A stretch of 64,000 bases of DNA, from NCBI GenBank assembly GCA_019454185.1, contig CP075368.1, positions 1,899,649 through 1,963,648 of the forward strand, in the 5' to 3' direction. Every line of letters starts with the position of its first letter. Position 1 is the first letter of the stretch. Made by a program: the position numbers and the translations under genes. Under the pieces are notes generated by a model, which saw only the letters and a program-made list of their open reading frames with translations, did not search any database and was not told the DNA's origin. The DNA is from Phycisphaeraceae bacterium. Lineage in GTDB: Bacteria > Planctomycetota > Phycisphaerae > Phycisphaerales > UBA1924. This document shows, piece by piece, positions 1,841 to 14,044 of this stretch.

Positions 1841-3787
1841 ATGCTCAAGTTTCTACGGAAGTACCGCACCATCCTCCTCGGGATGTTCGTCGTCATCCTC
1901 ATGGTCGCCTTCGTCGCGCCCCAGGCCATCCAGCAGCTCGGGCCCAACCCCCTCAAGCAGAAGGCCGGCTCCATCTCCGGCGTCGCCTTCACGGTCGGCG
2001 ACCTGCAGCAGGCCGCGTCCGAAGTCCGCATGCTCGAGACCATCAGCCCCGCGATCCCCGTGATCCTCGGCCTTGATAACACGAGACAGCCCGAGCACTG
2101 GATGCTCTTGAAGAGCGAGGCCAAGGCCGCGGGACTCATCGGTGAGATCGACGATGGACGCGACTGGCTCTCCGAGGTCGCGGCTCAGATCGCCCGCATC
2201 TCCCTCACCCAGCAGTACGGACGCTTCGGCCAGCAGTGGGTCGCCATGATGATGCAGGACCCGCAGGTCCAGCAGGAGATCGCCGGCCAGGCACAGAGCA
2301 TGCTCGGCAGGGTCGCCTCCGCCGCGGGCAGCAACCGCCTCACCGAGCAGGACGGCTTCCGCGCCCTGGCAGCAGCACGAGGAATCACACGCCTCAAAGA
2401 CGCATACGTCTTCGCCGCCCGGCCGACCCGCGCCCAGGCGGTCGCCGCGGCTCGCACCATCGGCGACTCGGCCACCATCGACTACCTCTTCATCCCCGCC
2501 CGCACGCTCTTGAACGAGATCGACGAGCCGAGCGAGGCCGACCTCGCAGCCCACTACGAGGCCTACGCCTCGGTCGAGCCCGGCACGGGCGACTTCGGCA
2601 TCGGATACATGCGTCCGGCCCGCATCAAGATCGAATGGCTCGTGATCGATCGGACCGCCATCGCCGGCGCGATCCCCGTGGACCGGGTCGAGCTGCGCAA
2701 GCTCTACGAGTCGAACCGCACCAAGTACACCAGCGACTACGAGATCGAGCGTGAGATCGTCCGCGCCGACTATCTCAGCGCGAAGACCGCCGAGTTGATG
2801 TCCGAGATTCTCCGGATCGTCCGCGCGGAAGTCCTCAAGGCGACACGACGCCTCGAGACGCAGGACACCTACAAGAAACTCCCCGAGACCTGGGCAGACG
2901 AACGCCCGCGTCTTGAGCAGATCGCGCTGACCGTCGTCGAGTCGCTCCGCACCATCAAGGGCGTGACTATCCCGCTGCCGAGGGTCGAGTCGCGCGATGC
3001 CAACTGGCTCGACGCCGCGGACCTCTCGATGCTCCCCGGCATCGGCTCTTCAGTGGTGCGCCTCGGGAGCATGCAGGCCCCCTTCGCCCAGTACGCCCTT
3101 CAAGTGAAGGAACTCGAAGGCAACCCCTCCCTCGGTCTCCAGGTCGGGCTCACGCCGATCGATAACCCTCTGGAAGACGCCTCGGGCAACATCTACTTCT
3201 TCACCGTGCTCGAAGCACGCCCCCCCTCCGCCCCGGACGGCATCGCCGATGTCACCACCCTGCGCGACGACTGGAAGACCATCAAGGCCTATGAGCGCCT
3301 CATCGGCGAACTCGGGATCTTCGAGACCCTCGCGCGGACCGATTCGCTCGACGCCGCGGCACGCCTCGTGGACACCGACGGCACCCGCCTGCTCTTCCCG
3401 ACCAACGCGGTCACGATCTCGCGCAACGGCCCGGCCACGTCCGACCGCGCCATCCAGTCACGGGCCTTCACCGATGCCGTGATGGACGCGGTCAAGGCCC
3501 TCGACCCGCGGCTCAGCCCGGAGGCCCTGGCCTCCGAGCCCGGCGCGGTCCTCGGCATCCCCCTGCCCAACCAGCTCGGCATCGCGATCGTGCGCATCCG
3601 CTCGATCGTGCCCTACACCATCGAGCGATTCCGCACTGAGGCAGTCGGCATCGTCGCCCAGAGCATCGCCTCAGAAGTCGAGAAGGTCGCCGGCACCATG
3701 GAGAACGTGAACCCCTTCACGTACCAGGTCATGGTCACCCGCCTGAAGTTCGAGACCCCCGGCTCCAAGCAGTCCGGCGACTCCTGA
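1841..3787 (+). CDS. membrane-anchored periplasmic chaperone, PpiD/SurA-N-like
   Basis: N-terminal MLKFLRKYRTILLGMFVVILMVAFVAPQ anchor typical of PpiD-like proteins and a long periplasmic region. I could not see a clear parvulin signature by eye. Confidence 0.5.
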   Translation: MLKFLRKYRTILLGMFVVILMVAFVAPQAIQQLGPNPLKQKAGSISGVAFTVGDLQQAASEVRMLETISPAIPVILGLDNTRQPEHWMLLKSEAKAAGLIGEIDDGRDWLSEVAAQIARISLTQQYGRFGQQWVAMMMQDPQVQQEIAGQAQSMLGRVASAAGSNRLTEQDGFRALAAARGITRLKDAYVFAARPTRAQAVAAARTIGDSATIDYLFIPARTLLNEIDEPSEADLAAHYEAYASVEPGTGDFGIGYMRPARIKIEWLVIDRTAIAGAIPVDRVELRKLYESNRTKYTSDYEIEREIVRADYLSAKTAELMSEILRIVRAEVLKATRRLETQDTYKKLPETWADERPRLEQIALTVVESLRTIKGVTIPLPRVESRDANWLDAADLSMLPGIGSSVVRLGSMQAPFAQYALQVKELEGNPSLGLQVGLTPIDNPLEDASGNIYFFTVLEARPPSAPDGIADVTTLRDDWKTIKAYERLIGELGIFETLARTDSLDAAARLVDTDGTRLLFPTNAVTISRNGPATSDRAIQSRAFTDAVMDAVKALDPRLSPEALASEPGAVLGIPLPNQLGIAIVRIRSIVPYTIERFRTEAVGIVAQSIASEVEKVAGTMENVNPFTYQVMVTRLKFETPGSKQSGDS

Positions 3788-3805: not shown

Positions 3806-5398
3806 TCAGATCCGCCCGTGCTCCCAGCCCCCCCGCAGGAACCGCCAGCCGAACGCCCCGGCCCGCACGACGATCTCCGCGCACAGACCGACCCAGAGCC
3901 AGGCCAGCGAGGGCTCCATCCCACTAGGATTGGGGAGTACCTTACCTCCGGGGAGCGGGATCTCAACGCCCGAGAGCAGATACGCCAGAGGCAGCCGGAC
4001 CGCGTAGGTCGTCCACCATGTCAGGTGCATGACGGCCTTCACGTCCCCGGCCCCGCGCAGCGCCGACCGCCAGACGATGCTGGCCGCGAACGGGATCTGG
4101 ACACACCCGCTGATGATGAGCAGAGCTGGAACGAGCGTCAGGTGCGACTCGATCGGCGTGAAGAGCGACGTGATCACCCGAGGGAAGATGACGAAGGCCA
4201 GGCCGCTCAGCCCCATGGTCGTGCAGGCGATGAGCGTGCAGATCCAGATGGCCTTCCTGGCCATGGCCGGGCTGCCTGCCCCGAGGTACTGCCCGGTGAG
4301 GGTCGCGGCGGCCGCGCCCATCGCGAACCCGGGGAGGAAGCTGAAGGCCTCGATCCGGATGGCCACGATGTGGGCGCCCATGGCCCCGGAGACGCCCGCG
4401 GCCCCGATGAGCCCGACGAAGAGCATGATGGCGTAGTTGCCGATCCACATGCCGAAGGTCTCGAAGAGGTTGGGAAGCCCGATGCGGACGATGCGGCGGA
4501 TGGTGTGCCAGTGGGGCCGTAGACGCCGGGCGCGGAGCCGGATGCCCCACGTGCCGCGCGAGGCCATCCAGAGGACCATGACAGCGCCGACCGCCTGAGA
4601 GGCGATCGTGCCGAGCGCGATACCCTTGATGCCGAGCTCGAAGGGGAAGGGATTGGCAAGGACGACCGAGCGCGTTCCATCGGACGAGAGCGTGTTCCAA
4701 TCGACGCCTGAGAGGACCCAGCTCACGACGATGTTGACGGCGTTGACGACGACCATGATCCAGAGCGGCCGGATGGAGTCTCCGACGCCCCTGGCGCAGG
4801 CGATGCCCGTGAAGAGGATGGACATGAGGGGCATGCCGCACGAGACGATGAGGATGTAGTCGCGGAACGCGGCTGCGCCGTCGCCGCTGAGGTTCATCAT
4901 GGAGGCGGTGGCGGGCGTTGTGATGGCGACGATGAGGCCGGTGGCGACACCGGCGACGATGGCGACGACGAGGGATTGACCCAGCACGGCGTTCGCGACC
5001 GCCATGCGTCGCGCACCGACGGATCTTGCGATGAGTGCGGTTGCTCCCATGCCGACGGACATCACGACGAGGCCCATGAGCCACATCATGTACGCGGCGG
5101 CGCCGATGGCGTCGGTCTCCTGCTCGCCGAGGCCGGCGGCGAGGACGGTGTCGGTGAGCCCCACCATCGAATTCAAGAAGGACTCTGCGAGGATGGGCCA
5201 GGAGAGGATCCAGATCGCCTGGCGCATGGTCAGCCCGGCGAGTCTGCCGGCACGGAGGCGTCCATCGGGCGTCAGACCCGAGGGGCGCGTGCGTGAGGGG
5301 GAGAGGGCGAGTTCCTCGGATGGGTCGATGGATTCTGGGTTCAGCGCCGGCGAGCCGCCCTGATGGGATTCGTGGGGCGATTTGCTGTGGTCGGACAC
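3806..5398 (-). CDS. MATE family efflux transporter
   Basis: Polytopic membrane protein with the MATE N-terminal signature (ILSWPILAESFLNSMVGLTDTVLAAGLG). The first ~140 codons of ORF 3806..5821 are Arg/His-rich and overlap the next gene. I chose the GTG at 5398, preceded by GGAG; the ATG at 5227 is the alternative. Confidence 0.8.
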   Translation of the reverse strand: MSDHSKSPHESHQGGSPALNPESIDPSEELALSPSRTRPSGLTPDGRLRAGRLAGLTMRQAIWILSWPILAESFLNSMVGLTDTVLAAGLGEQETDAIGAAAYMMWLMGLVVMSVGMGATALIARSVGARRMAVANAVLGQSLVVAIVAGVATGLIVAITTPATASMMNLSGDGAAAFRDYILIVSCGMPLMSILFTGIACARGVGDSIRPLWIMVVVNAVNIVVSWVLSGVDWNTLSSDGTRSVVLANPFPFELGIKGIALGTIASQAVGAVMVLWMASRGTWGIRLRARRLRPHWHTIRRIVRIGLPNLFETFGMWIGNYAIMLFVGLIGAAGVSGAMGAHIVAIRIEAFSFLPGFAMGAAAATLTGQYLGAGSPAMARKAIWICTLIACTTMGLSGLAFVIFPRVITSLFTPIESHLTLVPALLIISGCVQIPFAASIVWRSALRGAGDVKAVMHLTWWTTYAVRLPLAYLLSGVEIPLPGGKVLPNPSGMEPSLAWLWVGLCAEIVVRAGAFGWRFLRGGWEHGRI

Positions 5399-5484
5399 TC
5401 TCTTCTCCGGGCTCGACGCGGCGGCGCGGCGTCGTCGAGCCCGATCGTACACGGCGGAGGCGTGTCGGATGCGATGATCCGTGC

Positions 5485-6462
5485 TTACGCGAAGGGCCAG
5501 ACGGCCAGACCGTGGGGCGCGTTCCTGACATCGTTGCCGAATGTGATGGTCTTGATGCGTGCGGCGCGATCGATGTCGTAGACGCTGACGGTGGAGGGCG
5601 AGGAGCCGCCGATGACGATGCCGGGGCGGCCTGGGTCGCCTGTCCAGGCGGTGAGGCCTCGCGCGAAGTTCGGTTTGGCGACATCGCTCGGCAGGTTCAT
5701 GTTGATGAGTGTCGCGGGGTCGTGCCTGTAGATGTCGATCGCGGCGCGGATGTTGCCTGTGCGATCGGCGAAGCAGACTTTCTCTTCGGAGGTGCTGTTG
5801 TAGATCACGCCATCGCGCCACGGGCGGGCGTTGTGGGTCCAGGTGGGCAGTCGCGCGCCGAGGCCGACGCGCCGGCCGTCGAAGATGAAGAGCACGGGGA
5901 GCCGGACGCCTGAGATGAAGGTCATTCCCTGCATACGGCTGACGGCGTTGATGTGGATGGTGTCGGCCTTGTGCGGGCCGCCCGCGGCGTTCGGGTCGAA
6001 GGGCTTGAAGTTCAGATGCTGGGGGCCGATGGGGACTCCGGGGGGCGGCTCGTTGAGTACGCGGATCGAGAGTCCTGAGACGAAGCGATCCGATGGGAGG
6101 TCGTATTCGAGGATGGAATCGAAGGCGGTTGACGTGAGGAGAAGGCGGTCGCCCGCGACCCAGATCTCATGGCAGAGGCCGAGGTAGTCGTTGCGGACGG
6201 AACTGAGTCGATTGAAGTCTTTGTCGAAGAAGAAGATCTCGTCGCTGGCGGCGATGATCACTCGGTCGCGCCAGAAGGCGATGCCGCGAAGTCCGCGGTC
6301 GCCGCCTCGGCCCTCCCAGTCGATGTCGCCGGTGTTCCAATCGAGTTTCTTCTGGACCTCTTCGGTTTCGAGATCGACGAGATAGACGCCACCGTGGCTG
6401 TCGCCCTGATGTGTCGAGCGAATGACATCGGTGATGAGGACTTTGGGGAGTGGCGTCGGCAT
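5485..6462 (-). CDS. hypothetical protein, repeated beta-strand (propeller-like) pattern
   Basis: ORF 5485..6528 trimmed to the ATG at 6462 (MPTPLPKVLITD...). GC3-rich codons. Family not recognised. Confidence 0.55.
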   Translation of the reverse strand: MPTPLPKVLITDVIRSTHQGDSHGGVYLVDLETEEVQKKLDWNTGDIDWEGRGGDRGLRGIAFWRDRVIIAASDEIFFFDKDFNRLSSVRNDYLGLCHEIWVAGDRLLLTSTAFDSILEYDLPSDRFVSGLSIRVLNEPPPGVPIGPQHLNFKPFDPNAAGGPHKADTIHINAVSRMQGMTFISGVRLPVLFIFDGRRVGLGARLPTWTHNARPWRDGVIYNSTSEEKVCFADRTGNIRAAIDIYRHDPATLINMNLPSDVAKPNFARGLTAWTGDPGRPGIVIGGSSPSTVSVYDIDRAARIKTITFGNDVRNAPHGLAVWPFA

Positions 6463-6679
6463 GTCTGATCCATGGCGTTGAGTTGAGCTGGAAGGTGATT
6501 GTACCGAGTTTGGACGAGAGACTGGCACTGCTGCGGGGTGCGCACTCTGCTGGACGCTCTCCGAGGACTACGGACGCCTGCGGCGTGTCAGAACGCTGCA
6601 AGGCCTGTGCTTGAGATGATCTTGTCACACACGATCCACAACCGAAGGGATACAGGCGCGCCATCGCCTTCGGCTCGCT

Positions 6680-7072
6680 TCACGAGCCGCAGGCGATGGC
6701 GGAGGCGATGGCGAGGCCACCGGCGTGTGAGATGGAGAGGTGCCAGGTTGTGATCGACCGTGCGGCGGCGATGCGAGCGGCTTCGCCGCGGAGCGCGACG
6801 GAGGGTGGGCCGGCGGTGGCGAGGATCTCGACGTCAGTCCAAGCGATTCCCCCGGACCAGCCGGTGCCGAGGGCCTTCAGGACGGCTTCCTTGGCGGCGA
6901 AGCGGCCGGTGAGGTGCTCGACGCGGCGGGCGTGGACGGCGTTGTACGAGAGTTCGGCGGGGGTGAAGACGCGCTGGAGGAAGCGATCGCCGTGCTCATC
7001 GATGGAACGCTGGAGGCGTTCGACGGGCATGAGGTCGATGCCGTGGCCGAGGATGTGAGTGGCTGGTGGCAT
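6680..7072 (-). CDS. acpS: holo-[acyl-carrier-protein] synthase
   Basis: GHGIDLMPVERL...FTPAELSY...RFAAKEAVLKALGTG...LSISHAGGLAIA. Start moved to the ATG at 7072 because the first 22 ORF codons are a translation of the 34-nt repeat. Confidence 0.85.
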   Translation of the reverse strand: MPPATHILGHGIDLMPVERLQRSIDEHGDRFLQRVFTPAELSYNAVHARRVEHLTGRFAAKEAVLKALGTGWSGGIAWTDVEILATAGPPSVALRGEAARIAAARSITTWHLSISHAGGLAIASAIACGS

Positions 7073-7095
7073 GGAAGGAGAAAGAGAAAAGGCAG

Positions 7096-7129
7096 GACTC
7101 ACCACAGAGACACAGAGGGCACAGAGAAG
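7096..7129 (+). repeat. 34-nt (CACAGAG)x3 repeat, copy 1
   Basis: GACTCACCACAGAGACACAGAGGGCACAGAGAAG. On the gene strand it lies 23 nt upstream of the acpS ATG. Confidence 0.9.
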
Positions 7130-7153
7130 AGAATGCATGGGAAGAGGGAAGAG

Positions 7154-7597
7154 TTACTTCGAGGGTGAACGGTGTTTGGAGGACTTGGAGGCGGGCTTCG
7201 GGGAGGACTTGCTGGGGGAGGGTTTGCCTCCTTTGGAGGGGGAAGACTTGGGAGCCGACTTCGATTCGGGTTTGGATTCTTGCTTGGGCGTGGATTGTGA
7301 TTTGGCGTCGGGCTTCGCGTCCGATTTTGAATCAGACTTTGTCTCTGGCTTGGAGTCGGTCTTGGAATCAGGCGCGGGGGCTTTCTCTGCGTCGGCGGCC
7401 TTCTTGTAAGACTCGGAGCGGTAATCGGTCTCGTAGAAGCCGGAGCCCTTGAAGAGGATCGCGGCACCGGTGCCGATGAGGCGTTCGAGGGCGTTCTTGG
7501 CGCACTTGGGGCATTTGCGCTTGGGCGCGTCCTTCATGGACTGGAAGAGCTCGAAGCGGTGCTTGCAGGCGTTGCACTTGTAGTCGTAGGTGGGCAT
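7154..7597 (-). CDS. FmdB-family zinc-ribbon protein with a long Lys/Ser/Pro-rich tail
   Basis: MPTYDYKCNACKHRFELFQSMKDAPKRKCPKCAKNALERLI (CxxC...CxxC), then a ~90-aa KS/KP low-complexity tail. Confidence 0.8.
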   Translation of the reverse strand: MPTYDYKCNACKHRFELFQSMKDAPKRKCPKCAKNALERLIGTGAAILFKGSGFYETDYRSESYKKAADAEKAPAPDSKTDSKPETKSDSKSDAKPDAKSQSTPKQESKPESKSAPKSSPSKGGKPSPSKSSPKPASKSSKHRSPSK

Positions 7598-7622
7598 CGG
7601 GGATCCAACTTCAAACTAGGAG

Positions 7623-7656
7623 GACTCACCACAGAGGCACAGAGAACACAGAGAAA
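7623..7656 (+). repeat. 34-nt (CACAGAG)x3 repeat, copy 2
   Basis: GACTCACCACAGAGGCACAGAGAACACAGAGAAA. Lies 25 nt upstream of the zinc-ribbon gene ATG. Confidence 0.9.
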
Positions 7657-7738
7657 GACAGTGAAGAAGCGGGGATAGGGTGTCGGAAGGCGACAGCCGT
7701 TGGGCTCGTAGGTGAAGGAATGAGAGTACAGGACTCGG

Positions 7739-8398
7739 TCACGCGTTCGGGGCGACGGCGACCTTTGCTGGACGGATGACGCGCTCGCCGGTGAGCATCG
7801 TCAGGAGGAAGCCGGGCTGGAAGGTTGAGACGATGCGGCCGGGCTCGATGCCATCTGCCGTCTGCTGGATCACGGCCTCATGGCGTCCGGGCTGGAACTC
7901 ATCGTTGGGCTGGGGGTGGATGAGCGTGACGCCGTTTCGAGAGAGGATCTTGAGCATCTCTTCGCGGATGACGCGGACGCCGCCGATGAGCTGCTCGGCG
8001 GTGACCTTGGCGGGGTCCTGACCGATGGCGAGGTCGAAGTGATCGAGGACCGCTGCGACATCCGAGACGATTCGTGAGACGCCGTCTGCCTTGGCCTGCT
8101 GCTCGTTCTGGAGGGCGCGGCGCTGGCTGTTCTGGTAATCGGCGACGGTGCGGAGGAGTTTGTTCTTGGTCTCGGTGAGCTCGGATTCCAGTATGTTGAC
8201 ACGCGCGATCGCCTCCTCCGCGCTCTCGGGTCCCCACTCGCTTTTCCAGGTGTCGGACGCGCGCTCGCCGGACGGCGCGGGATCGCTTGCGCTGCCCCAG
8301 TCGCCGGTGTCGGAGATGTCGTGCTCGCGGGGGGGCACCGATTGATCGCCCGGCGTGCCTTGGTTGTGTCTGTCTTTCTTGTTCATCGCATCACCCAT
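7739..8398 (-). CDS. grpE: nucleotide exchange factor GrpE
   Basis: Coiled-coil N-terminal part followed by GrpE core motifs (FDLAIGQ..., HEAVIQQ..., RPAKVAV). Sits directly downstream of dnaJ. Confidence 0.9.
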   Translation of the reverse strand: MGDAMNKKDRHNQGTPGDQSVPPREHDISDTGDWGSASDPAPSGERASDTWKSEWGPESAEEAIARVNILESELTETKNKLLRTVADYQNSQRRALQNEQQAKADGVSRIVSDVAAVLDHFDLAIGQDPAKVTAEQLIGGVRVIREEMLKILSRNGVTLIHPQPNDEFQPGRHEAVIQQTADGIEPGRIVSTFQPGFLLTMLTGERVIRPAKVAVAPNA

Positions 8399-8426
8399 GG
8401 TTCATGCCGGTCTTGCGTTGGGGCTC

Positions 8427-9596
8427 TCAGGGATTCAGAAAGTCTTTGACGCGTTTCCAGAATCCTTCGCTCTCAGGAAGCACATCGTGGTTCTCTAGTG
8501 CGGCGAGTTTGCGGAGCAGCCCCTCTTGCTCGCTCGTGAGTTTGCGGGGCACTTCGATCTTGACGCCGACGAGAAGATCGCCGCGGCGGGCGGTGCGGAG
8601 GTTGGGAAGCCCCTTGCCCTCGATGCGGAAGACGGTGCCGTAGGCGGTTGCCTTGGGGACTCGGAGGGTGTGCTCACCGTCGAGCGTGGGGATCTTGATG
8701 TCGGCGCCGAGCGCGGCCTGGGTGTAGGTGATGGGCATCTCGAGCGTGAGGTTGTCGGCCTGCTCGGGGTCGCGCTGGAAGAGCGAGTGCTCGTCGATGC
8801 GGATCACCACGTGGAGATCGCCGCGGACGCCCTGGCCGTCGGCGGAGACCTCCTGCGGCGGGGGTTCGCCCTCGCCCGCGACACGGACGGCCATGCCCTC
8901 CTGCACGCCGGCGGGGATCTTGACGGAGAGTTTGCGCTTCTTGGGGACGCGCCCCTTGCCCCGGCAGCCGTCGCAGAGGTCTTTGATGATGCTGCCTCGG
9001 CCTTTGCAGTTGGGGCATGCGACGACCATGCGGAACATGCCGCCGAGGCCGGTCTGCTGGACCTTTCCGTGGCCGCCGCAGGTGGGGCACTTGTCGGGCT
9101 TTGATCCGGGCTTTGCGCCGGAGCCGGTGCACTTTTCGCAGACGTCCATGCGTGTGAACTCGACATCGCGTTCGCAGCCGCTGAGGACTTCTTCGAGTGA
9201 GATCTCGACTTCGGTCTCGAGGTCGTATCCCCGTGCTGGGCCGCGGCGCTGCTGGCCTCCCCCCCCCCTGCCGCCCATGCCGCCGCCCCCGAAGATGTCG
9301 TTGAACATCGAGAAGATGTCGTCGACGTTCATGCGGGTGAAGTCGTGGGTGGCGGGGCCGCCCCGGCCTCGGAGTCCTTCGTGGCCGTACTGGTCGTAGA
9401 TCTTGCGCTTGGCGTCGTCTGAGAGGACCTCGTAGGCCTCGGCGGCTTCCTTGAACTTGGCCTCGGCCTCGGCATCGCCGGGGTTGCGGTCGGGGTGGTA
9501 CTTCATCGCCAGGCGGCGATAGGAGCGCTTGATCTCCTCGCCGTCGGCGGTGCGCTCAACGGAGAGGATCTCGTAATAGTCACGGGTGGTGGGCAT
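8427..9596 (-). CDS. dnaJ: molecular chaperone DnaJ
   Basis: J domain (DYYEILSV...[16 protein letters not shown]), a Gly-rich linker, and four CxxCxGxG zinc-finger repeats. Confidence 0.97.
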
Positions 9597-9676
9597 GGGG
9601 GATCCGGGGAGGCAAAGACGAAGATTGAAGACTCACCACAGAGGCACAGAGGACACAGAGAAAGGCAAAGAACGGG
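9564..9676 (+). repeat. direct duplication, copy A (dnaJ 5' end + leader + 34-nt repeat)
   Basis: ~113 nt matching 9738..9849 with about 7 differences. Includes the first 33 nt of dnaJ. Confidence 0.85.
9630..9663 (+). repeat. 34-nt (CACAGAG)x3 repeat, copy 3
   Basis: GACTCACCACAGAGGCACAGAGGACACAGAGAAA. Lies 33 nt upstream of the dnaJ ATG. Confidence 0.9.
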
Positions 9677-9770
9677 TCATGAAGGCCCTCAAAGACGAAG
9701 CGTTTGAACTCCTCGCGGTCGGTGGTCTCTCGAAGGCGAGGATCTCGTAATAGTCGCGGGTGGTGGGCAT
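9633..9770 (-). pseudogene. duplicated dnaJ 5' fragment (45-codon remnant ORF)
   Basis: The ATG at 9770 opens [11 protein letters not shown] (identical to DnaJ residues 1-11), then diverges and stops inside repeat copy 3. Confidence 0.5.
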
Positions 9771-9849
9771 GGGGGATCCGGGAAGGCAAAGACGAAGAAA
9801 GAAGACTCACCACAGAGGCACAGAGGACACAGAGAAATGCAAAAACGGG
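9738..9849 (+). repeat. direct duplication, copy B
   Basis: See copy A. The two copies are offset by 174 nt. Confidence 0.85.
9804..9837 (+). repeat. 34-nt (CACAGAG)x3 repeat, copy 4
   Basis: Identical to copy 3. Lies 21 nt beyond the GxxExxY stop codon. Confidence 0.9.
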
Positions 9850-9858
9850 ATAGAAAGA

Positions 9859-10260
9859 CTACAACACCATTCGCTTGATGCCGTCACGGAGATAGGGAGA
9901 GTTGAAGTTGAGGAGAAGCCCCTTCGACTTTCTTGCGAGCCGGAGATACGTGAGTAACTGGGCCTCGTGGACGGGCAAGAGCTTCTCAACAGACTTCACT
10001 TCGACAACGACTGCACCACAAACGAGCAGATCGATTCGGTATCCACATTCGAGCTGAAGGCCTCGGTACTCGAGCGGCACTGCGACCTCGGACTCGACCG
10101 CGATCCCGCGATGGCCGAGTTCGTGCCTGAGGCACGCCTGGTACGCGGATTCGAGCAACCCAGGTCCGAGGGCCTCGTGAACGGTGATCGCAGCCCCGAT
10201 GATCTCTCCTGTCAGAGAGTCGGTGGAATCCGGCGCGAGATGGATGCCACGGTCCTGCAT
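9859..10260 (-). CDS. GxxExxY protein (PD-(D/E)XK nuclease-like superfamily)
   Basis: IIGAAITVHEALGPGLLESAYQACLRHEL contains the G-L-L-E-S-A-Y signature, and the ~133-aa size is typical. Start moved to the ATG at 10260 because upstream ORF codons translate the inverted repeat. Confidence 0.85.
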   Translation of the reverse strand: MQDRGIHLAPDSTDSLTGEIIGAAITVHEALGPGLLESAYQACLRHELGHRGIAVESEVAVPLEYRGLQLECGYRIDLLVCGAVVVEVKSVEKLLPVHEAQLLTYLRLARKSKGLLLNFNSPYLRDGIKRMVL

Positions 10261-10268
10261 CAATGGCT

Positions 10269-10302
10269 CTTCTCGGTGCTCTCTGTGCCTCTGTGGTGAG
10301 TC
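10269..10302 (-). repeat. 34-nt (CACAGAG)x3 repeat, copy 5 (inverted)
   Basis: The reverse complement reads GACTCACCACAGAGGCACAGAGAGCACCGAGAAG. Lies 8 nt upstream of the GxxExxY ATG. Confidence 0.85.
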
Positions 10303-10400
10303 TTTGTCTTGGTCGGTTTTCGAATCGTCCCACGCGTGTGTCCACGGGTGGGGCGGGGTGGTTTGGTTCATCCGCTCGCTCGCGCTCGCGGTTCGGTCAA

Positions 10401-10420
10401 CCCCGAGCTTGCGCTCGGGG
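10401..10420 (-). terminator. GC-rich hairpin downstream of groEL (copy 1)
   Basis: CCCCGAGC-ttgc-GCTCGGGG, a perfect 8-bp stem, 21 nt after the groEL stop. Only a short U run follows on the minus strand. Confidence 0.45.
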
Positions 10421-10441
10421 CTCCCTTTTGATTCCTATCGA

Positions 10442-12055
10442 TCAGGAGACGGATCCGGTCGTTGCTTCCTGCTCGTCCTTGAGTTCGGTCATCATGACGT
10501 CGGTGGTGAGCATGAGGCCCGCGACGCTCGCGGCATTGACCAGCGCGCTCTTCGCAACGAGGGCGGGATCGATGATCCCGGCTTTCACGAGGTCGCCGTA
10601 CTCGCCGGTCGCGGCGTTGAAGCCAAAGGAGCCCTTGCCGTCCTTGACCTTCTCGACCACGATGTCGCCGTCGAAGCCGGCGTTGACAGCGATCTGCCAT
10701 GCGCACTTCTCGACAGCGGCGATCACGATGTCGAAGCCGAGCTTCTCATCGCCCTTGGCCTTCTTCTGGGCGGCGGTCATGGCTTCCTGAGCGCGGATGA
10801 TGGCGACGCCGCCACCGGGGACGTACCCCTCCTTGGCAGCGGCGCGGGTCGCGTGGAGCGCGTCGTCGACGAGGTCCTTCTTGGCCTTCATAGCGACTTC
10901 GCTGGAGCCGCCGACGCGGATCATGGCGACGCCGCCGGTGAGCTTGGCGTGACGCTCCATCAGCTTCTCCTTGTCGTAGTCGCTGGTGGACTTGTCGTGC
11001 TGGGCCTTGATCTGTGAGGCGCGGGCGCTGATCTCGGCTTTCTTGCCCGCGCCCTCGATGATCGTGGTGTCGTCCTTGGTGATGACGACCTTCTTGGCGC
11101 GGCCGAGCTCGGAGATCTCGATGGATTCGAGCGAGCGGCCGAGATCTTCGGCGAAGAAGGTGCCGCCGGTGAGGACGGCGATGTCGCCGAGCATGGCCTT
11201 GCGGCGGTCGCCGAAGCCGGGGGCCTTGACGGCGCAGATCTTGAGGACGCCGCGGAGGCGGTTGACGACGAGGGCGGCGAGTGCCTCGTTCTCGACTTCT
11301 TCGGCGATGACGAGGATGGGCTTGCCGCTGGTTGCGACCTTGTTGAGGAAGGGGAGGAAGTCGGTGAGATTGCTGATCTTCTTCTCGTGGATGAGGATGT
11401 AGCAGTCTTCGAGCACGCACTCGGCGGTCTTGGGGTTGGTCATGAAGTAGGGGGAGAGGTAGCCCTTGTCGAACTGCATGCCCTCGACGTAATCGAGCGT
11501 GGTTTCGGCGGACTTGCCCTCTTCCACTTCGACGACGCCGTCGGGGCCGACCTTTGAGATGGCTTCGGCGATGAGTTCGCCGACTTCGGCGTCGTGGTTG
11601 GCAGAGACGGAAGCGATCTTCTTGTAGTCGTCCTTGCCCTTGCACTTGACGGCCATGCCGGTGATGGCCTCGGCGGCGGCCTCGGCGGCCTTGTTGATTC
11701 CCCGCTGGACCTGCACGGCGTTGGCGCCGGTGGCGATGACGCGGAGGCCTTCGGTGAAGATGGCCTGGGCAAGGACGGTGGCGGCGGTGGTGCCGTCGCC
11801 GGCCTTGTCGGCGGTCTTCTTGGCGACCTCATTGACGAGCTTGGCGCCCATGGAGGCGAAGGGCTCGGGGAGGGAGATCTCCTTGGAGACGGAGACGCCG
11901 TCCTTGGTGACGTGAGGGCCGCCGTAGGACTTCTCGATGACGACGTGGCGGCCGCTCGGGCCCATCGTGCACTTGACGGCCTCGGCCAGTTGGTCAACGC
12001 CCTTCTTCATCTCGAGGAGTGCGGCGTCTTTGTACATGATCTGCTTCTTGGACAT
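10442..12055 (-). CDS. groEL: chaperonin GroEL (paralog 1, tail ...ELKDEQEATTGSVS)
   Basis: MSKKQIMYKD...AGDGTTAATVLAQAI... is full-length Cpn60. It has no GGM-repeat tail. Confidence 0.97.
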   Translation of the reverse strand: MSKKQIMYKDAALLEMKKGVDQLAEAVKCTMGPSGRHVVIEKSYGGPHVTKDGVSVSKEISLPEPFASMGAKLVNEVAKKTADKAGDGTTAATVLAQAIFTEGLRVIATGANAVQVQRGINKAAEAAAEAITGMAVKCKGKDDYKKIASVSANHDAEVGELIAEAISKVGPDGVVEVEEGKSAETTLDYVEGMQFDKGYLSPYFMTNPKTAECVLEDCYILIHEKKISNLTDFLPFLNKVATSGKPILVIAEEVENEALAALVVNRLRGVLKICAVKAPGFGDRRKAMLGDIAVLTGGTFFAEDLGRSLESIEISELGRAKKVVITKDDTTIIEGAGKKAEISARASQIKAQHDKSTSDYDKEKLMERHAKLTGGVAMIRVGGSSEVAMKAKKDLVDDALHATRAAAKEGYVPGGGVAIIRAQEAMTAAQKKAKGDEKLGFDIVIAAVEKCAWQIAVNAGFDGDIVVEKVKDGKGSFGFNAATGEYGDLVKAGIIDPALVAKSALVNAASVAGLMLTTDVMMTELKDEQEATTGSVS

Positions 12056-12142
12056 GTGTTCACCTCTTTGGATCGTGCGTGTTGGTTGTCGGGCGGCGTG
12101 TGGATGCGGTGCCGCGTGTGTGTGTCGTGATTTCGGTGCGGC

Positions 12143-14044
12143 TCACCATGAACCGTCCTTCTCGTATCCGAGGGCGATGAGTTGGTCGCCAGCGGCTTGC
12201 TTGAACCATTTCTTTGCATCGTCGGTGAAGTAGTTCTGCCAGTCGCCCACTTGCCCCTTGCGATAGAAGCCGCCGGGGGTTTCGGTCTCGAATCCGGGCG
12301 CGGAGCGGTTGGCGGCACTGACTGGGGCGGCTTCGGCGGGATCGAGCCCGAGGAAGCGGTAGAGGGCGGCGCGCTCGGACTCGACGTCGGCGCGCATGCG
12401 TTCGTAACGGAGTTCGTGGAAGGGCGTGCGCCCGCGCTCGCGGATGACTGCGGCGACGGCGAGGTCGTGCCGCATCTGCTGTGCCCATTGGCGGGCGAGC
12501 GTGCGGACCCACTGTTCTTCGGCGAGCAGCCGGTGCGGCTCGCGTTTGAAGAGGTCCGGGTCGGCGAGGAAGGCCTGCTGGAGGGCGAGCATGCGCCCGG
12601 CGTAGAGCGGGTCTTTGAGCATCGTGCCGCCGGAGGCGAGTTCGTGGAAGGTGCGGCTGATGAGGACGTCGCGTCCGTCGCGAAGGAGGAGGATGTGGGG
12701 CGCACCGGGGACGAGGACGCGGAGGGCGCGGGGCGTCTTGTCGCCGAGCCATGTTGCGTCGGGCTTGTGGGTGCTGATCGCGCCCATGATGCGGCGGACG
12801 GCGTCGCGTGCGGCGCGCTCGGCCTCGGTGCGGACGGGCTCGTGATGGGCGACGTGCCAAGGCCAGCGGGTCAATTGGTCGAAGGCGTTTCGGAGGGCCT
12901 CGAAGCGGAACTCACCCTGCACGAAGGTGCGCGGATGGAGGTTCATGACGGCGACGGTCCAGGTGGTGCCGGAGCGGGGATGGCCGCAGACGAAGAAGAG
13001 ATTGCGGGCGATGCCGTCGATGGTGATGGTGTGTTCGGGCGCGTCGCCGGGAAGCGGCGCGGGGTCGGCGTGGGCCTCGATGAGGGCGGGATCGTGATGG
13101 GTGTGCGGGTGGGTGTGCGGCGCGTGGATGGCGGGTTGCGCAGGCGCGGCGGTTGGCGCGACCGAGGGTGCGACCTCGCTGATCCACAGATCGTTTGAGG
13201 CGTAGCCAGCGGCAGTGAGCGCGGCACCGGCCTCGTCGTGGAAGGCGAGCGCGTTCTCGCGCGTGAAGAATCGACGCCAAGAGCCGGGCGCGACGTCGTG
13301 GGCCTCGGACGGCTCTGCGGCGCGGGGCGCGAGGGTCTGCACCCCAAGGAGAGAACAGAGGGCGCGGACCGAATCGCCGGAGGTCGCGACGTCCTCGAAT
13401 CGGACGACGAGGGTGCGAGAGCCAGCATCGGCGAGGCGCTTGAGCGCGCCGAGATCGGACTGGATGCGGGTCGCCCAGGTGCGAGCGAGTTGGCGGAGCC
13501 AGGGTTCGAGCCAGAGGAGGCGATGGGGACGATCGCGGAGGAGGTTCGGATCGCGCCGGAGTTCCTCGCGAAGGTGCTCGAGCCGGGCACGGTAGCGCTG
13601 GTCGCTGAAGAGGGAGTCGGGGCCGGCGTGGGCACTGGTCAACTGGCGGAGGGCCTCGGCGATGACGACGTCGCGCCCATCGCGGACGAGGTAGATGTAT
13701 GTCCCGCCGGGAAGAATCTCGTCGACGGGCTCCTGGGCGATGTCGGCGATCCAGCGGATGGCGCGCGTGTCGGTGATCGCGGCGTGCATCGTGGCGCGGA
13801 CGAGTTCGTTGGTCGAGCGCAGGAGCGTTTCGGCGCCGGGGGCGTCGAGCGTGCTCGCGGCGCGGTGCGCGGCGCTGACAACGGGACCGAGGCCGAACGT
13901 GCCGGTGGTGACGATCCCGGTGCGGGCGAGCGCCGCGGCCAGGGTTTCCAGACCGCTGGAGGGGTGAGCACGGAGGAAGAGTTCGCGCACGGAGAGGGGC
14001 GCATCGACGCGAACGGGAGTTGAGGCGCGGAGCTGGGTGGTCAT
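12143..14044 (-). CDS. two-domain sulfotransferase (degenerate N-domain + canonical PAPS-type C-domain)
   Basis: C-domain motifs: FFVCGHPRSGTTW, LLLRDGRDVLIS, FYRKGQVGDWQNYFT. N-domain: HPSSGLETL replaces the PSB loop, VRDGRDVV is kept, and the C motif is degenerate (GSWRRFFT). The ATG at 14044 overlaps the upstream stop (ATGA). Confidence 0.8.
   Translation of the reverse strand: MTTQLRASTPVRVDAPLSVRELFLRAHPSSGLETLAAALARTGIVTTGTFGLGPVVSAAHRAASTLDAPGAETLLRSTNELVRATMHAAITDTRAIRWIADIAQEPVDEILPGGTYIYLVRDGRDVVIAEALRQLTSAHAGPDSLFSDQRYRARLEHLREELRRDPNLLRDRPHRLLWLEPWLRQLARTWATRIQSDLGALKRLADAGSRTLVVRFEDVATSGDSVRALCSLLGVQTLAPRAAEPSEAHDVAPGSWRRFFTRENALAFHDEAGAALTAAGYASNDLWISEVAPSVAPTAAPAQPAIHAPHTHPHTHHDPALIEAHADPAPLPGDAPEHTITIDGIARNLFFVCGHPRSGTTWTVAVMNLHPRTFVQGEFRFEALRNAFDQLTRWPWHVAHHEPVRTEAERAARDAVRRIMGAISTHKPDATWLGDKTPRALRVLVPGAPHILLLRDGRDVLISRTFHELASGGTMLKDPLYAGRMLALQQAFLADPDLFKREPHRLLAEEQWVRTLARQWAQQMRHDLAVAAVIRERGRTPFHELRYERMRADVESERAALYRFLGLDPAEAAPVSAANRSAPGFETETPGGFYRKGQVGDWQNYFTDDAKKWFKQAAGDQLIALGYEKDGSW

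Follow-up and report, generated by a model that had tools for sequence, protein, structure and literature searches.

Tandem CTCYGTG-word arms at gene junctions of a Phycisphaeraceae genome: a candidate intervening-sequence-like hairpin element found across phyla

The chaperone gene cluster of a Phycisphaeraceae bacterium contains five copies of a 34-nt repeat built from three CACAGAG words, which raises the question of whether the repeats regulate the genes that they precede or belong to an element that lodges between genes. The window, the 64-kb stretch of DNA analysed here, corresponds to C1:1899649–1963648 of the single 3.80-Mb contig (64% G+C) of this genome, labelled G000. Direct reading of the region gives the unit in full as GACTCAC-CACAGAG-N-CACAGAG-NN-CACAGAG-AAR. 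A search with CACAGAGNCACAGAG, allowing up to two mismatches, returned five matches in the window, at 7103, 7630, 9637 and 9811 (+) and at 10281 (-), and none outside these five copies; in shuffled sequence, 0.59 matches are expected and five were never reached. The copy number, consensus and positions reported in an initial annotation, which was made from the letters of the window alone, are thereby borne out. That annotation offered three readings of the repeats: a regulatory binding array, a promoter or leader module tied to start codons, and an element resembling repetitive extragenic palindromes (REPs) or MITEs (miniature inverted-repeat transposable elements) that spreads with GxxExxY genes.

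We favour a different account, with a probability of about 0.55, in which the repeats are the arms of a cross-phylum, intervening-sequence-like hairpin element located at gene junctions, whose paired arms form an RNA stem of ~40 bp that is a likely substrate of RNase III. The arm consists of about three CTCYGTG words at 8–9-nt spacing, capped by an outward-facing GTGANTC head. Of the five copies in the window, an inverted pair surrounds a GxxExxY gene, and the other three are solo right-hand arms before dnaJ, a Zn-ribbon gene and acpS.

The cassette of arm, gene and arm is a 499-bp inverted pair, R4/R5, on the minus strand between groEL and dnaJ (9804..10302). Its cargo gene (9859..10260, minus strand) encodes a GxxExxY protein of 133 aa, which matches PF13366 (PDDEXK_3, E 6e-41) and TIGR04256 (E 4e-42), and is co-directional with groEL and dnaJ. 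The inverted copy R5 (10269..10302, plus strand) forms the 5′ arm, with purines on the sense strand, and is located 8 nt before the GxxExxY ATG (10260), as the initial annotation had it; in the minus-strand transcript it reads GACUCAC-CACAGAG-G-CACAGAG-AG-CACCGAG. The 3′ pyrimidine arm, R4 (9804..9837, minus strand), lies 21 nt past the GxxExxY stop codon. The CACAGAG words are spaced 8 and 9 nt in all five window copies. For the minus-strand RNA from 10315 to 9790, R5 and R4 are predicted to close a stem of ~40 bp, in the minimum-energy and centroid folds alike, with a predicted energy of -226 kcal/mol compared with -187 ± 7 kcal/mol for shuffled sequences (z = -6.0). A scan of 6600–12300 gave no sigma-70-like promoter with -35/-10 hexamers, and a search for the controlling inverted repeat of chaperone expression (CIRCE) with up to three mismatches gave no match. 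An Rfam search over 5000–14000, with E values up to 1, matched no family on the repeats and no rRNA; its lone return was a chance-level snoRNA match at 12656 (E = 0.75). In the literature, we found only incidental mentions of GxxExxY/PDDEXK_3 proteins, with no functional study of them and no paper connecting word arrays to GxxExxY genes.

The minus strand is the coding strand of all genes at the repeat cluster, and R1–R4 read (CTCTGTG)x3-GTGAGTC on it. All three solo pyrimidine arms are located shortly before start codons: R3 (9630..9663) 33 nt upstream of the dnaJ ATG (9596), R2 (7623..7656) 25 nt upstream of the ATG of the Zn-ribbon gene (7597), and R1 (7096..7129), which reads CTTCTCTGTGCCCTCTGTGTCTCTGTGGTGAGTC on the minus strand, with its head 23 nt upstream of the acpS ATG (7072) and no inverted partner within 350 nt. 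R4 is followed on the same strand by a duplicated leader and a decayed dnaJ 5′ fragment (9700..9803), which has its ATG at 9770, about 75 nt of dnaJ-like sequence with indels and no complete open reading frame (ORF). The distances of 23, 25, 33 and 33 nt from the repeats to the ATGs of acpS, the Zn-ribbon gene, dnaJ and the dnaJ fragment, as given in the initial annotation, were confirmed by measurement. The duplication is 115 nt long (9555–9669 versus 9729–9843, 93% identical) and includes the repeat, the leader and the first dnaJ codons, with R3 inside the first block. It accounts for R3 and R4 only; R1, R2 and R5 are alike in the unit alone.

A genome-wide search anchored on ACTCACCACAGAGGCACAGAG identified 26 copies of the arm family in G000. 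Genes called approximately by their codon usage number 2,980 and take up 85% of the genome; relative to these calls, 23 of the copies are intergenic, and the other three lie inside ORFs that are possibly miscalled. CACAGAG arrays with at least three exact units number 14 genome-wide, compared with none for the reversed word. The initial annotation had named two outcomes as speaking against it, a random placement relative to genes and a set of only five copies explained by local duplication; neither was found, as the copies number 26 and at least 23 are intergenic. The head is positioned 12–66 nt from a gene end in 19 of the 26 copies. In eight copies, it lies 23–64 nt before a co-directional start codon, namely those of a second groEL (45 nt upstream, at G000 83470), acpS, the Zn-ribbon gene, dnaJ, the dnaJ fragment, a 495-aa gene, and sucD-like and argB-like genes whose names were judged from their first residues alone. 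In 11 copies, it lies 12–66 nt beyond the stop codon of a convergent gene. A second cluster, at 3709.1–3711.1 kb, comprises four copies in a plus-strand operon, where the purine strand is on the sense strand after stop codons; the orientation relative to transcription is therefore not fixed. The constant property is that the head points outward to a gene boundary. As a general property, a start-codon-bound module, be it regulatory, promoter or leader, is thus not sustained, given the 11 convergent stops against eight starts and the sense-strand placement after stops in the second cluster.

Eight of the copies form four inverted pairs with outward heads, of which three are gene-less (152, 177 and 186 bp) and the fourth is the 499-bp pair R4/R5. 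For the remaining 18 copies, no inverted partner above the random background was found within 350 nt, even when degenerate partners were sought. No relationship was seen among the loops of the three short pairs, and no direct duplication was seen in the flanks of the four pairs. A classical MITE was considered and dropped, given the unrelated loops, the lack of direct duplication at the flanks of the four pairs and the absence of an enclosed transposase. In a sample of 30 hairpins, 12 are located between convergent, 15 between co-directional and three between divergent genes; the scarcity between divergent genes disfavours a promoter role.

The arm is widespread beyond this genome. The exact 21-mer CTCTGTGCCTCTGTGGTGAGT was searched on both strands of a one-genome-per-species collection of 596 Gb and found in at least 120 stretches from about ten phyla, where about 0.3 matches would be expected by chance according to our estimate. 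The hosts include Acidobacteriota (many Pyrinomonadaceae), Planctomycetota (Phycisphaerae, Pirellulales and Fimbriiglobus), Bacteroidota (Prevotella and Porphyromonadaceae), several proteobacterial classes, Desantisbacteria, Binatia, Nitrospirota, Gemmatimonadota, Armatimonadota, Elusimicrobia, Chloroflexota and a spirochaete. Among the matches listed, 67 of 127 copies have an inverted CACNGAG array at a distance of 29–139 nt on their inner side, 14 further copies have an outer partner ~20 nt away, and one copy encloses a GxxExxY ORF, in a Porphyromonadaceae metagenome-assembled genome (MAG; locus L107). Judged from these arrangements, the usual form across phyla, among the matches listed, is a hairpin element of 70–190 bp. 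An all-against-all comparison of the loops of 62 such cross-phylum hairpins, again among the matches listed, revealed that they are mutually unrelated. A 19-mer core was also present in 62 viral stretches of IMG/VR at phage gene junctions, and on the viral contig L166 hairpins occur at successive junctions of putative phage structural genes, judged by their appearance. Among the matches listed, the bacterial 21-mer and phage 19-mer cores are always at gene junctions.

In five loci of AT-rich genomes, Desantisbacteria and Nitrospirota MAGs (L103, L012, L028, L038 and L059), the CTCTGTGCCTCTGTGGTGAGT arm is nested outside a TAATCTGYG / CACAGATTA array. The position of the arm outside a second word array makes layered hairpins from two word families possible.

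The CACAGAG arms of G000 stand beside arrays of other words, some of which also enclose genes. Tandem Repeats Finder (TRF) detected 139 intergenic arrays of period 7 or 8. Intergenic sequence makes up 15% of the genome but hosts 111 of the 165 period-8 arrays that have at least 2.8 units. The words include GGCACGAA, AGTGACGG, CCCCTCTG, GCCGAAT and CGCGAAG, and the controls with reversed words gave almost no arrays. Of the four GxxExxY paralogs of G000, three are located within inverted three-unit arrays, with the words CACAGAG, CCACGGAG and CGCGAAG, respectively, and two of the three four-helix-bundle genes (PF05635/TIGR02436), members of the 23S rRNA intervening sequence protein family, are flanked likewise, by GCATTCG and AGTGACGG arrays. 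All five armed genes (three GxxExxY and two PF05635) are co-directional with both neighbours and located at cistron junctions: groEL/dnaJ, accB/accC, dcd/nrdJ, an unnamed 421-aa ORF/polA, and a lipoprotein-like ORF/DUF58, with the two PF05635 genes at accB/accC and dcd/nrdJ. Given co-directional flanking gene pairs, the chance of five out of five under random orientation is 1/32. The common design is therefore a word-array hairpin whose loop carries a promoter-less small gene, apparently within a transcription unit of the host. Two copies of a 339-aa ORF, to which we assigned no family (G000:C1:1062396–1064341 and 1848195–1850077), are each positioned inside nested inverted word arrays of the TGCGACAC/ATGCGATAC and GCGGCCC types, ~1.7 kb apart.

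If the repeats are arms of such a hairpin element, the element would be transcribed as part of the operon, and its paired arms would fold into a long RNA stem to be cut by RNase III, by analogy with the ORF-bearing intervening sequences (IVSs) of 23S rRNA. Such cleavage would release the mRNA of the cargo and part the cistrons on either side. Solo arms would then be half-elements, perhaps left by turnover, without a start-codon-specific role; within the operon, they would serve at most as alternative pairing partners for the single purine arm R5.

Several observations weigh against this account. Most copies, 18 of 26, are solo, and a solo arm alone provides no RNase III stem. A comparison of sense and antisense folding, which bears on selection at the RNA level, leaned in the predicted direction but was not significant: among 15 co-directional hairpins, the sense strand folds better in ten and worse in five, with a mean difference of -3.4 kcal/mol (p = 0.16). 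A pyrimidine-rich array is found before acpS in all five congeners and before dnaJ in four of the five, and the arrays at these two leaders could be selected by the host. No target-site duplication, enzyme or movement event was seen. Identical arms with unrelated loops do not fit a simple copy-and-paste of the whole element. Finally, co-transcription and stem cleavage are argued here from the analogy with the IVSs.

The distribution among close relatives bears on how the arms persist. We counted the 21-mer, with up to one mismatch, in 41 relatives. Within the genus, the counts are 22 (own genome), 7, 2, 32 and 5; among other genera of the family, five have 5, 9, 5, 19 and 1 and most have none; and in the rest of the order, one genome has 3 and the others none. 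The reversed-pattern control gave no match in any relative. The groEL-dnaJ-grpE-Zn-ribbon-acpS cluster was compared in four congeners, G001–G004, whose DnaJ proteins are 90–96% identical to that of G000. The layout in G003 is as in G000, with an R5-like arm, a GxxExxY gene (90% identical), an arm, an extra ORF, an arm and dnaJ, and with arms also before the Zn-ribbon gene and acpS. The extra ORF of G003, ~110 aa between the cassette and dnaJ (L126, G003:C234, ~2850–3220), opens with the first five codons of dnaJ (MPTTR) behind a duplicated arm and leader; the same place in G000 holds only the decayed dnaJ 5′ fragment. G001, with 96% identical DnaJ, has no arm copy anywhere in the cluster; an unrelated insert of ~800 nt fills its groEL-dnaJ gap, and its Zn-ribbon leader carries an array of another word (CCATTTGG type). 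In G002, a (CTCCGTGA)x4 array lies 14 nt ahead of the ATG, in a groEL-dnaJ gap of 152 nt. G004 has a different inserted ORF (~520-nt insert) and a partial arm with the same leader. R2 in G000 sits in a 142-nt spacer, instead of which the grpE-Zn-ribbon gap is 16 nt in G002 and 15 nt in G004. The groEL-dnaJ gap is a hot spot for inserts, with different ones in G001 and G004. The same junctions are thus empty, filled or refilled with other words, and arrays are gained, lost and replaced within one genus.

The acpS leader bears on an alternative, in which CTCYGTG-type arrays are selected at cistron boundaries for a benefit to the host, either as signals for RNA processing, stabilisation or insulation, akin to the RNase III sites of phage T7, or as protein-binding sites, and evolve in place by slippage and concerted change rather than by mobility. 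All five genomes of the genus carry a pyrimidine-rich array of the same polarity in this leader, made of different words: CTCTGTG x3 plus the head in G000 and G003; CTCCGCG/CTCTGCG in G001; a CTCTGTG-CTCCGCG-CTGTG hybrid plus the head, then a G001-type array, in G004; and CTTCGCG x3, then a remnant of the G001 type, in G002. The words differ between genomes by CpG-to-TpG-type changes in every unit, over whole arrays. Arrays at the junctions of the putative phage structural genes and the scarcity between divergent genes (three of 30 hairpins) also fit such selection, and the authors who described the same design in Geobacter took it for binding sites of a global regulator (PMC2700814). However, an exact 21-mer that includes the head and is common to about ten phyla of very different G+C content would be hard to obtain by independent evolution in place. 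Furthermore, several junctions of close congeners are empty (the 15–16-nt spacers), apparently harmlessly, and the copy number varies from 2 to 32 within one genus. We regard a host-beneficial origin as doubtful.

A second alternative assigns the spread to the cargo. Through recognition of the phased CACAGAG words in its own arms, the PD-(D/E)XK protein encoded by the GxxExxY gene would act in trans to copy or maintain the arms, in the manner of REP doublets forming hairpins (REPINs) and their REP-associated tyrosine transposases (RAYTs), and the 25 other copies would be non-autonomous offspring. This proposal draws on the nuclease fold of GxxExxY proteins, on the three of four G000 paralogs that each lie within their own inverted word arrays, on the occurrence of each of those words in dispersed arrays as well, and on the Porphyromonadaceae gene L107, which carries the same arms. 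A comparison of the arm positions with those of the PF13366 genes in all 41 relatives, however, revealed a GxxExxY gene flanked by this arm family only in G000 and G003, at the same locus. Six relatives with 5–19 arm copies, G024 (19 copies), G017 (9), G001 (7), G015, G019 and G004 among those armed, have no GxxExxY gene beside such arms. About six of 30 GxxExxY loci of the relatives are clearly armed, a qualitative figure because automatic extraction mis-framed several ORFs. The arm word does not track protein similarity, either: identity to the window protein is 43% for the L107 protein, whose arms are the same, but 58% and 49% for the G000 paralogs with other words. In addition, non-nuclease four-helix-bundle genes occupy the same hairpins, and the copies are alike in their arms but not in their loops. 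A nuclease-driven spread is accordingly rather unlikely. These results argue against a simple one-nuclease-one-arm system, while leaving room for a role of the cargo proteins.

The idea that the element is always a GxxExxY cassette was also dropped, since one in 127 cross-phylum copies among the matches listed encloses a GxxExxY ORF. A REP/REPIN-RAYT system was rejected on two grounds, namely that the arm is a direct word array rather than a palindrome and that the RAYT-like genes of G000 have other flanks. Six full-length Y1_Tnp (RAYT/IS200-like) genes of ~150 aa were found in G000 (C1 2843527, 3501206, 2315605, 3096625, 1321279 and 3485700), along with two weak partial matches, and each of the six has ordinary GC-rich palindromes at its flanks, for example GAGTGGCTGAAGCCACTC, not word arrays. 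These genes and palindromes constitute a REP/RAYT-type system apart from the heptamer arrays. Copying of the arms does not appear to depend on a GxxExxY gene with matching arms or on a RAYT transposase. Of the three readings in the initial annotation, the REP/MITE-like element spreading with GxxExxY genes came closest, as one pair does enclose a GxxExxY gene and three of four paralogs are armed; the association itself is loose, with one in 127 copies among the matches listed, armed relatives of up to 19 copies without it, and four-helix-bundle genes as further cargo.

A more speculative and unlikely extension takes the ~34-nt arm, the head with three words, as the propagating unit, planted at gene ends by an arm-specific process common to many phyla and phages. 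Pairs of arms would then shelter promoter-less small genes (GxxExxY or four-helix-bundle) that RNase III cuts from host transcripts, and one purine arm facing four pyrimidine arms would set the cut sites in the operon RNA through alternative long-range duplexes.

The weakest reading, a chaperone or heat-shock leader operator or promoter module in which the CUCUGUG x3 plus GUGAGUC array co-regulates dnaJ, the Zn-ribbon gene, acpS and groEL, can point to the four copies 23–33 nt from ATGs in one operon and to the copy upstream of the second groEL, but is very improbable and largely refuted by the genome-wide placement: other copies precede the sucD-like, argB-like and 495-aa genes or follow stop codons, no copy lies before grpE (28-nt gap after dnaJ) or the window groEL (none beyond 10302), congeners with 90–96% identical DnaJ, G001 among them, lack the repeat or carry other words, the scans yielded neither a sigma-70-like promoter nor a CIRCE site, and the same sequence occurs at unrelated genes in unrelated phyla and phages.

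Published systems share parts of this arrangement. The closest printed description of the word family is that of the class 2 putative global regulator binding sites of Geobacter metallireducens, which consist of three tandem TCTCCGTS[Y] units and make up 21 opposite-strand pairs with variable spacing (Aklujkar et al. 2009, PMC2700814). These sites resemble the arms in belonging to the CTCYGTG word family, in being intergenic and mostly paired on opposite strands, and in reaching dozens of copies per genome (PMC2700814). They differ in having been described as aligned sequences and guessed to be regulator sites, and the report contains no cargo genes, cross-phylum distribution, solo-arm bias or comparison of filled and empty sites (PMC2700814).

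The hairpin design with cargo has its nearest counterpart in the 23S rRNA IVSs. In the IVS of Coxiella burnetii, the stem measures 28 bp and includes three tandem heptamers (GACAGAT) that directly precede the ORF (Warrier et al. 2016, PMC4990558), and both the Coxiella and the E. coli RNase III cut this stem in vitro (PMC4990558). As in the ORF-bearing IVSs of Coxiella burnetii and Leptospira, the cassette has a small ORF in the loop of a long predicted terminal stem, tandem heptamers and a co-directional position within a presumed transcription unit, and two PF05635 genes of G000 are found in heptamer hairpins. In contrast, the window cassette is positioned at an mRNA cistron junction (groEL/dnaJ) rather than in a 23S rRNA helix, its cargo belongs to PF13366/TIGR04256 rather than to the S23p four-helix-bundle family, and most copies of the arm family are gene-less or single arms.

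The placement is matched most closely by the GGGAATC / GGGGAYT arrays of Xanthomonas and Nostoc, which consist of about four 7-nt units in intergenic regions (Rehm et al. 2015, PMC4692102). GGGAATC arrays keep within 50 bp of gene ends, upstream of ORFs on the antisense strand or after stop codons on the sense strand, form about 70 convergent inverted pairs per genome, and are rare between divergent genes (PMC4692102). The G000 arms have the same geometry, including the scarcity between divergent genes, and combine the features of paired tandem-heptamer arrays, with at least three 7-nt words, an intergenic position near gene ends that follows a strand rule (the purine strand is the sense strand past stop codons and the antisense strand ahead of starts), and frequent inverted pairs. 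The Xanthomonas arrays are G-rich and were interpreted as G-quadruplex formers, whereas the CACAGAG/CTCTGTG words have no G-tracts; the shared geometry is therefore not due to quadruplexes.

REPs and REPINs with their RAYTs (Y1 HUH family) likewise occur as short extragenic singlets and inverted doublets, with a small gene bracketed by the dispersed repeat; unlike them, the arm is a tandem word array and the enclosed genes are of the GxxExxY or four-helix-bundle families. RNase III processing hairpins between phage T7 genes were reportedly described by Dunn and Studier. The paired arms, including those on phage contig L166, may be likened to them in that long hairpins stand exactly at the cistron junctions of polycistronic transcripts. 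The T7 RNase III sites are unique sequences without tandem-word arrays and are not known to be dispersed across phyla or to enclose genes.

Reports of tandem 7–8-nt boundary arrays in single genomes thus go back to 2009 (Geobacter, Xanthomonas, Nostoc and the Coxiella IVS) without offering an explanation, and none of the published parallels (Geobacter class 2, the Xanthomonas arrays and the Coxiella IVS) gives a mechanism. What the present case adds is the predominance of solo arms, the filled, empty and replaced states of the same junctions, the coexistence of two cargo families, identical arms with unrelated loops, and negative tests for a cognate nuclease or RAYT, which weaken the idea of an enclosed nuclease driving the spread. 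One small genome joins the cross-phylum 21-nt core, the phage 19-nt core, cassettes, gene-less hairpins and solo arms, and the cargo comes from one or the other of two large, functionally uncharacterised protein families, GxxExxY and the 23S-IVS four-helix bundle. If the RNA-stem/RNase III reading is true, such hairpins would offer a general way for small genes to ride in operons without breaking them.

The arms also call for caution in annotation, since they inflate ORFs and can mimic leaders or signal peptides. The ORFs 6680..7138 and 9859..10371 read through the repeats, and their Pfam domains begin only past inner ATGs, which bears out the earlier remark that the repeats inflate them. At G000:C1:3701526–3701617, an arm copy precedes a CTTCGTGC/CTTTGTGC array, and this array overlaps a 180-aa ORF at its 5′ end. 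The translated array, ...VPLCLCAFVPLLTGC, resembles a lipoprotein signal peptide with a lipobox, and the array may have been co-opted as coding sequence.

The gene identities proposed initially are supported by Pfam/NCBIfam, with PDDEXK_3/TIGR04256 for the cargo and, all on the minus strand, acpS (6680–7072, ACPS), the Zn-ribbon gene (7154–7597, Zn_ribbon_8), grpE (7739–8398, GrpE), dnaJ (8427–9596, DnaJ) and groEL (10442–12055, Cpn60). At 10401–10420, 22 nt downstream of the groEL stop codon, a GC-rich hairpin, CCCCGAGC-TTGC-GCTCGGGG, precedes a CGCGAGCG-rich stretch; both are kept in four of the five congeners, and G002 retains the CGCGAGCG-rich stretch alone. This hairpin may be a terminator or attenuator that parts groEL from the dnaJ operon. 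The contig ends, G000:C1:1–61 and 3800021–3800083, consist of (CCCCTCTG)n arrays of ~8 units, and 100 N are present somewhere in the sequence; the assembly probably breaks, or was closed, within a long word array. The sole other word array in the window, at 893–936, has a period of 8 (CCCCTCTT/CCCCTTTG/GCCCTCTG...) and is located 7 nt past the end of a plus-strand gene.

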